Shown here piece by piece: positions 12,001 through 15,000 of a DNA stretch of 64,000 nt (positions are counted from its first letter, which is position 1; each line of letters begins with the position of its first letter). Source of the stretch: Escherichia coli 042 (lineage in GTDB: Bacteria > Pseudomonadota > Gammaproteobacteria > Enterobacterales > Enterobacteriaceae); assembly GCF_000027125.1 (NCBI RefSeq), contig NC_017626.1; one strand, 5' to 3'. The position numbers are program-made.

Positions 12001-15000
12001 CCCTAATTCTTTCGCCCGGGATTCAGTCATCAGGATCACCGCTGCCGCGCCATCGGTCAGCGGCGTACTGTTTGCCGCCGTTACCGTTCCGTGTTTGCGA
12101 TCAAACGCCGGGTGCAGCTTTGCGTAATCGGCAAGCGAGGAATTACCGCGAATATTGTTGTCTTCGACAAGCGGTTGTTTATAAGGAGGGATAAAGGCAG
12201 TCATCACCTCTTCTTTGAGTTTACCGTCTGACCACGCCTGAGCGGCTCGCTGATGCGAACGGTGCGCTAATGCATCTTGCTGTTCGCGAGTAATACCGTA
12301 GGTTTTCGCCATTTGTTCAGCGGTGTCGCCCATCCGCAAGCCAGTAGAGTATTCCGCCACTGCCGGAGGCACCGGCATTAAGTCGCGCAAACGCAGGCGA
12401 GAGAAGAGTTTCAGGCGCTGGCTCATGGTTCGAGCTTTGTTGACATCAACCAGCACGCGCGCCAGTTTTTTACTGACGCCAATTGGCAATACGGAAGAGG
12501 AATCGGCCCCACCGGCAATCCCCGCGCGAATAGTTCCCGCCATCAGGCTTTCTGCGACGTTTGCAATCGCCTGGAAACTGGTAGCGCAAGCGCGGCTGAC
12601 GCTGTAAGCATCGGTATGCACATTCATTCCAGTACCGAGAACAATTTCACGCGCAATGTTGGGGGCTTCCGGCATTTGTACGACCTGACCAAAAACCAGT
12701 TGTTCAATCACTTCGGCGGGAATTTCGCTGCGTGCCAGCAGTTCGCCTACCACCATCTTCCCCAAATCAACAGCAGGAATGCCATGAAAAGCCGTCGCCT
12801 GGCGGGCAAAAGGCGTACGTAACCCGCTAACAATGGCGATGCGATCGCCCTGGCGGGTAACCAGCGGTAAAACCTGACCCATAACACTCCCCTGTAAAAT
12901 AATAAATAAAGTGGTCTGACCTGATCATAGTCTTAACCATTTTTTTACATTTAGCCAAGTGGAGAAAAGGGAAAGTGGGAGCTATGACACAGAGAGAAAA
13001 GTAGAAGAGAAAATAAAACGCCCCTGCCAACAACTGACAGGGGCGTACGTACCCGAGAGGAATTAACGCAGACCCAGCTGGAAGATCAGCATTTCAGCTT
13101 CGCAGGCAAAAGTGAAATCGATATCCAGGCGCACACCGTCAGACTCTTCAGTGAAAGTCGGGGTGATTTTGCACGGTTCGGATTCCACGCTACGGGCTTT
13201 TTCAGTCAGCGCCGCCAGCGTTTGTTCTGCTTCTGCGCGGTTTGCAAACACGCGGCTGTAAGACGCGGTGCAGTCGGAGTTGTCCATAATGGTGCCAACA
13301 TCCATACAGCAGCAAACCGGGGTTTCATCAGCACTACATTTACTCATCGTTGATTTCCTCTGTATGTGCACCCAAGGTGCCAGATAAACGTTGTGGATAT
13401 TTTACGCTTCCGGAAAGTGCTGCTCCAGTTGTTAATTCTGCAAAATCGGATAAGTGACCGAAATCACACTTAAAAATGATCTAAAACAAAATTCACCCGA
13501 ATCCATGAGTGCGCCACCTCCAAATTTTGCCAGCTGGATCGCGTTTCTTAGATCATATTTGAAAAAAGATAGAAACATACTTGCAACATTCCAGCTGGTC
13601 CGACCTATACTCTCGCCACTGGTCTGATTTCTAAGATGTACCTCAGACCCTACACTTCGCGCTCCTGTTACAGCACGTAACATAGTTTGTATAAAAATAA
13701 ATCATTGAGGTTATGGTCATGAGCCAGAAAACCCTGTTTACAAAGTCTGCTCTCGCAGTCGCAGTGGCACTTATCTCCACCCAGGCCTGGTCGGCAGGCT
13801 TTCAGTTAAACGAATTTTCTTCCTCTGGCCTGGGCCGGGCTTATTCAGGGGAAGGCGCAATTGCCGATGATGCAGGTAACGTTAGCCGTAACCCCGCATT
13901 GATTACCATGTTTGACCGCCCGACATTTTCTGCGGGTGCGGTTTATATTGATCCGGATGTAAATATCAGCGGAACGTCTCCATCTGGTCGTAGCCTGAAA
14001 GCCGATAACATCGCGCCTACGGCATGGGTTCCGAACATGCACTTTGTTGCACCGATTAACGACCAATTTGGTTGGGGCGCTTCTATTACCTCTAACTATG
14101 GCCTGGCAACAGAGTTTAACGATACTTATGCAGGCGGCTCTGTCGGGGGTACAACCGACCTTGAAACCATGAACCTGAACTTAAGCGGTGCGTATCGCTT
14201 AAATAATGCATGGAGCTTTGGTCTTGGTTTCAACGCCGTCTACGCTCGCGCGAAGATTGAACGTTTCGCAGGCGATCTGGGGCAGCTGGTTGCCGGTCAG
14301 ATCATGCAATCTCCTGCCGGGCAGACTCCTCAAGGGCAAGCATTGGCAGCTACCGCCAACGGTATCGACAGTAATACCAAAATCGCTCATCTGAACGGTA
14401 ACCAGTGGGGCTTTGGCTGGAACGCCGGTATCCTGTATGAATTGGATAAAAATAACCGCTATGCACTGACCTACCGTTCTGAAGTGAAAATTGACTTCAA
14501 AGGTAACTACAGCAGCGATCTTAATCGTGCGTTTAATAACTACGGTTTACCAATACCTACCGCGACAGGTGGCGCAACGCAATCGGGTTATCTGACGCTG
14601 AACCTGCCTGAAATGTGGGAAGTGTCGGGTTATAACCGTGTTGATCCGCAGTGGGCGATTCACTATAGCCTGGCTTACACCAGCTGGAGTCAGTTCCAGC
14701 AGCTGAAAGCGACCTCAACGAGTGGCGACACGCTGTTCCAGAAACATGAAGGCTTTAAAGATGCTTACCGCATCGCGTTGGGAACCACTTATTACTACGA
14801 TGATAACTGGACCTTCCGTACCGGTATCGCCTTTGATGACAGCCCAGTTCCGGCACAGAATCGTTCTATCTCCATTCCGGACCAGGACCGTTTCTGGCTG
14901 AGTGCAGGTACGACTTACGCATTTAATAAAGATGCTTCAGTCGATGTTGGTGTTTCTTATATGCACGGTCAGAGCGTGAAAATTAACGAAGGCCCATACC

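Follow-up and report, generated by a model that had tools for sequence, protein, structure and literature searches.

The window analysed here is a stretch of 64 kb from Escherichia coli 042, and around the FadR sites considered it is E. coli chromosome with the arrangement sixA-fadJ-fadI / yfcZ / fadL. In the comparison with K-12 MG1655, the genes were, in order, sixA, fadJ and fadI (all three minus strand), yfcZ (minus strand), fadL (plus strand), yfdF and mlaA. The segment 12860-13760 is 99 % identical to MG1655, without indels, and all three FadR sites are identical. A 1-kb query (12800-13800) found matches with 95-99.8 % identity, annotated as fadI, yfcZ and fadL, in 5,425 of the 5,426 complete E. 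coli genomes. The features of the region are:

11572-12882, minus strand: fadI coding sequence (3-ketoacyl-CoA thiolase), gene 1 of fadIJ
12909-12925, minus strand: FadR operator at the fadIJ promoter, with the sequence AAGTGGTCTGACCTGAT on the plus strand and ATCAGGTCAGACCACTT on that of fadI
12929-12935, minus strand: candidate fadI -10 region TAAGACT, predicted from a conserved block
12953-12958, minus strand: candidate fadI -35 hexamer TTGGCT (predicted), at least 90 % conserved per position in 78 distinct sequences
13018-13046, minus strand: intrinsic terminator 3' of yfcZ, a 13-bp stem followed by a T-run
13063-13347, minus strand: yfcZ (DUF406), which lies between both fad promoters and belongs to neither operator
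13450-13471, plus strand: CRP site in the yfcZ-fadL intergenic region, ATAAGTGACCGAAATCACACTT
13593-13609, plus strand: fadL FadR operator 1 (O1), AGCTGGTCCGACCTATA, -25 to -9 from the fadL start site
13606-13611, plus strand: fadL -10 hexamer TATACT, 7 nt upstream of the start site, at least 99 % conserved
13617-13633, plus strand: fadL FadR operator 2 (O2), CACTGGTCTGATTTCTA, -1 to +16 from the fadL start site
13618, plus strand: fadL transcription start site, derived from published distances
13713-15059, plus strand: fadL coding sequence, with the RefSeq start at the second ATG (13719)

The terminator keeps yfcZ transcription apart from the fadI promoter. Rfam gave no match in the region except for a sub-threshold hit to Spot 42 over this terminator, which was rejected (21.5 bits against a cut-off of 80). 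In fadL there are two in-frame ATGs, at 13713 and 13719 (ATGGTCATGAGC), of which RefSeq uses the second, and distances in the older fadL literature are counted from the first. Elsewhere in the window a 2036-aa ORF on the minus strand (20023-26133) contains an autotransporter beta-domain, an autochaperone domain and a passenger repeat. It is located just downstream of an argW-type tRNA-Arg(CCT) (18933-19007), and together with this position it looks like a strain-specific island. In K-12 a prophage is located at the argW-type tRNA.

The fadL start site has been published as being 95 bp upstream of the original ATG (PMC3460868) and, with the first ATG at 13713, the +1 position is therefore 13618. 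This assignment is sound, because the published centres of the CRP sites (-157 and +57) were reproduced with it. The upstream CRP site (13450-13471) lies inside the published CRP gel-shift probe 1 (PMC3460868), has its centre at -157 relative to the fadL start and is at least 80 % conserved throughout. Its centre is only ~113 bp from the yfcZ ATG, and the divergent yfcZ promoter might be its target, alone or along with that of fadL. Both CRP and ArcA are reported to act at the fadL promoter in addition to FadR (PMC3460868). Neither of the two known promoters, of fadI and fadL, was detected by a generic promoter scan, because their hexamers or spacer fall outside the rules of the scan.

The fadL operators are spaced 24 bp centre to centre, and O1 extends four bases into the -10 hexamer TATACT. 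O1 (-25/-9) and O2 (-1/+16) probably coincide with the footprints described by DiRusso et al. 1993. The oligonucleotides fadL-FadR-site1 and fadL-FadR-site2, used as FadR gel-shift probes by Feng & Cronan 2012 (PMC3460868) and also by Zhang et al. 2014 (PMC4259882), match the window exactly at 13584-13618 and 13610-13644, respectively. Binding to both probes was seen with wild-type FadR and not with the W60G mutant (PMC3460868, PMC4259882). The gap between the two 17-mers is 7 bp as counted here, compared to 8 bp in PMC3460868. Despite its two sites, fadL is repressed only modestly by FadR (PMC3460868).

The initial annotation had read sites matching a CTGGTC-N-GAC core, one upstream of fadI and two in tandem upstream of fadL. 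Three 17-bp sites do lie at these places, and the span given for them, 12909-13633, runs from the first base of the fadI site to the last base of O2; it is a bounding box of 725 bp which also includes the whole of yfcZ and its terminator. The description of the core, on the other hand, holds in full for one site only. The core CTGGTCNGAC occurs exactly only at O1 (13595-13604), while the fadI site reads GTGGTCTGAC on the plus strand and CAGGTCAGAC on the minus strand, and O2 reads CTGGTCTGAT, each with one mismatch. When up to one mismatch was allowed, the window contained 16 matches, compared to 9.0 ± 3.0 expected, which makes the core alone a poor discriminator.

As such a short core proves little, a position weight matrix (PWM) was built without any site of the window. 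Five of its sites were taken from published probe tables (fadBA, two of fadD, fabA and fabB; PMC3460868, PMC4259882), and four were added as the best matches of the five-site matrix upstream of fadE, fadH, fadM and iclR in MG1655. The leave-one-out range of these nine known sites was 6.3-18.6 bits. With the nine-site PWM the fadI site scored 17.6 bits, rank 1 of ~64,000 positions, a level reached in 2 of 100 dinucleotide-shuffled windows. The score of O1 was 13.7 bits (rank 2), with ~0.7 such matches expected per shuffled window. Both are inside the leave-one-out range and are the top two in the window in this matrix scan, which had been proposed as a check. O2, with 11.2 bits, ranked 8 of ~64,000, and ~4.7 equal or better matches are expected per shuffled 64 kb. 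Its score is thus above that of the weakest of the nine known FadR sites, yet within chance expectation for 64 kb, and O2 would fail a stand-alone threshold.

Mismatches to the published FadR consensus, aaCTGGTCnGACCwGtt (PMC9329746), were also counted. The fadI site, with 2 mismatches, is the unique best in the window and, together with O1 (3 mismatches), makes up the unique best two, whereas O2 has 5 mismatches and shares this class with 31 other positions in the window. The left half-site of O2 is good, with a perfect CTGGTC, and its right half is degenerate. The rest of the top ten PWM matches lie mostly or wholly within long ORFs; those at 25755, 49750, 11936, 21894 and 28450, being inside long ORFs, were set aside as chance matches. 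Among the ~13,400 non-ORF 17-mers, the fadI site, O1 and O2 rank 1, 2 and 3. A symmetrised PWM placed O2 at rank 21 (nine-site) or 208 (five-site), and the oriented matrix was preferred because symmetrisation ranks the asymmetric fadL sites worse. As predictions, the fadI site and O1 stand by sequence alone; the grounds for taking O2 as an operator are its position and the published binding, not its score.

The centre of the fadI operator is 35 nt upstream of the fadI ATG. The candidate -35 hexamer TTGGCT is located 17-18 bp upstream of the conserved TAAGACT and, if these two elements form the promoter, fadI transcription would start at ~12921-12923, within the operator. Another candidate for the fadI -10, TATGAT (12929-12924), was rejected, as its key second base is kept in only ~10 % of species; this base is G in most genera. 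According to a review (2022), FadR directly represses fadIJ and binds the promoter across the start site (PMC9329746). A literature search with the string of the fadI operator returned an unrelated paper only, and the match of this site to the K-12 operator is based on identity with MG1655, on the matrix and on conservation.

Conservation was assessed over 80 loci, each from a different species of Enterobacteriaceae, which were obtained by a scan with YfcZ. The fadL / yfcZ / fadI arrangement was the same at every locus that reached far enough. All 17 positions of the fadI operator are 94-100 % conserved in the 78 distinct Enterobacteriaceae sequences, and the site scored at least 13.4 bits in all 74 of those orthologous sites that are free of gaps. 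It is the top-ranked 17-mer for conservation in its own 180-bp intergenic region (mean 68 %), and the bases directly flanking it on both sides are variable. Within E. coli, the common variation around the fadI site is a single base, in K-12 at 12900, which is outside the operator.

In O1 the core CTGGTC/GACC is 98-100 % conserved, and the central N is identical to that of the window in only 16 % of the sequences, being mostly A elsewhere. A variable centre between fixed flanks is what would be expected if a dimer reads two half-sites, and the free central base of O1 is a clean evolutionary signature of the half-site structure of FadR. In O2, conservation is 47 % at the last base and 91-100 % at the other 16. 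The spacing of O1 and O2 is constant in all ~80 Enterobacteriaceae species, and scores of at least 11 bits were obtained in 68 of 81 sequences for O1 and in 76 of 81 for O2. Within E. coli, the 51 bp spanning both operators are 100 % identical in 5,089 of 5,424 complete genomes. This conservation is not specific to O1 and O2, because the entire yfcZ-fadL intergenic region (13351-13712) is unusually conserved: its mean identity is 79 %, and it is 356-372 bp long in all but one of 81 sequences; by conservation, the O1 and O2 17-mers rank 73 and 31 of the 346 in the region.

The yfcZ-fadL intergenic region also contains several further conserved blocks beyond the FadR, CRP and -10 sites. One exception among the species was Tenebrionibacter intestinalis (locus L037), in which O1 of fadL is lost (TAGCGGCTCGTCCTATA, -7.7 bits) and O2 is retained; in the same locus fadI is ~1.7 kb from yfcZ, compared to the usual 160-190 bp. 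In a comparative-genomics supplement, FadR is listed as targeting fadL in 50 genomes and fadI in 47, in each case across 5 taxonomic groups.

Taken together, we are close to certain that there is one FadR operator at the fadIJ promoter and that there are two tandem operators at the fadL promoter. There is next to no probability that the sites are instead chance matches to a short degenerate core, devoid of a regulatory role. The core with one mismatch is indeed barely enriched, and O2 taken by itself is within the range of chance. However, no non-ORF position outranks the three sites, all of them are located at most ~125 bp ahead of the start codon of fadI or fadL, two genes of fatty-acid degradation, their conservation across genera is strong, and FadR binding to identical fadL sequences has been published (PMC3460868, PMC4259882). 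The chance reading was ruled out on these grounds of rank, location, conservation and published binding. For O2 it is possible, if somewhat unlikely, that conservation is due mainly to something other than FadR, e.g. to the fadL start site and the initial transcribed sequence, FadR being weak or auxiliary there. The right half of O2, GATTTCT, is off consensus and yet as conserved as the left half (91-100 %), the fadL start site is the second base of O2, the 5' UTR downstream of it is also highly conserved, and the reported FadR control of fadL is modest, as mentioned above. On the other hand, conservation falls sharply on either side of O2, to 56-81 % at 13613-13616 and to ~20-40 % for four of the five bases at 13634-13638, the left half is a perfect CTGGTC, and a probe containing only O2 was bound by FadR in vitro (PMC3460868, PMC4259882). 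In S. oneidensis, FadL-1 likewise has two tandem predicted sites. A constraint of this kind on O2 can be compatible with FadR binding as the main explanation.

We consider it very unlikely that the boxes are used, also or instead, by paralogues of the FadR subfamily, LldR at fadL and PdhR at fadI, which if true would link fad expression to lactate and pyruvate. In genomic SELEX the LldR boxes were exactly O1 and O2, and LldR-dependent changes in fadL mRNA were seen (PMC10272880), but the LldR signal was low, 6.6 at fadL compared to 62.9 at lldP (PMC10272880). For PdhR, the reported evidence is a SELEX peak at the promoter of fadI, smearing in a gel shift, and a lower level of fadI mRNA in a pdhR mutant (PMC7660256). 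As counted here, the FadR operator of fadI fits the PdhR consensus at 10 of 14 positions, compared to 7 of 14 for the box assigned by the authors (PMC7660256). Against this, the SELEX signals of both regulators are weak, the LldR and PdhR boxes were assigned by eye on a shared TGGT-N3-ACCA core, and the sites are closer to the FadR consensus (GGTC/GACC). Binding of LldR or PdhR is possible as an addition to FadR, not as its replacement. A combined reading, in which the fad operators are shared by FadR, LldR (fadL) and PdhR (fadI) and the right half of O2 has a second function, e.g. in the 5' end of the fadL mRNA, also appears unlikely; if it were true, the boxes would integrate acyl-CoA, lactate and pyruvate signals and would not be simple operators of a single repressor. 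As to the published boxes themselves, the PdhR box of the authors (12860-12876) lies inside the beginning of the fadI coding sequence, and the FadR operator (12909-12925) is 50 bp upstream of it. The box given for yfdY/lpxP in PMC10272880 (tAtaGGTCgGACCAgcT) is the exact reverse complement of O1 of fadL; no second copy of it was found in the 64-kb window, and the entry in the table may be an error.

With FadR as the regulator at all three sites, a simple mechanism can be proposed. FadR is a winged-helix dimer of the GntR family, and one dimer would bind each 17-bp pseudo-palindrome. At fadL, O1 covers part of the -10 hexamer (-25/-9) and O2 the -1/+16 stretch, and at fadI the single operator lies across the predicted start site. 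FadR bound on the -10 and +1 regions would block RNA polymerase from the promoter. FadL and FadD would bring fatty acid in to give long-chain acyl-CoA, which would bind FadR and release it from the DNA, so that the genes would be expressed. Site identity, statistics, fadL geometry and conservation come from the present analysis, and binding and repression from the literature.

The results have little significance beyond annotation. In this strain, fatty-acid uptake (fadL) and the second beta-oxidation complex (fadIJ) are under the textbook control by FadR, just as in K-12. Two lessons are methodological, i.e. that a short core does not discriminate by itself, and that one of three accepted operators, O2 of fadL, is not callable by a sequence score alone.

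All three sites are already known FadR operators, unchanged from K-12. The consistency with known FadR control proposed initially is borne out, since the fadL sites are the published probe sequences, the fadI site is the best match to the matrix, and the review describes both fadL and fadIJ as repressed by FadR from sites that overlap the starts of transcription (PMC9329746). That the regulatory architecture is conserved here is also true, but trivially so, since the DNA is from E. coli and does not differ from K-12 in any base of the sites. Among the FadR probes of PMC4259882, the fadBA operator (ATCTGGTACGACCAGAT) is a near-perfect palindrome, and it has in common with the sites described here a 17-bp TGGT-N5-ACC architecture. 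The fadI site is near to a full palindrome, like the fadBA operator; O1 of fadL and, above all, O2 differ from it in their asymmetry, the left half being strong and the right half weak. The suggested comparison with the characterised K-12 operators gave identity with MG1655 at each of the three sites. The fadIJ (yfcYX) operator of K-12, attributed to Campbell et al. 2003 as cited in PMC9329746, is at the same locus, and the fadI site here overlaps the predicted start site, as that review describes for K-12 fadIJ. The K-12 fadL operators OL1 and OL2 (DiRusso et al. 1993; Feng & Cronan 2012) are found here with identical sequence, spacing and position.
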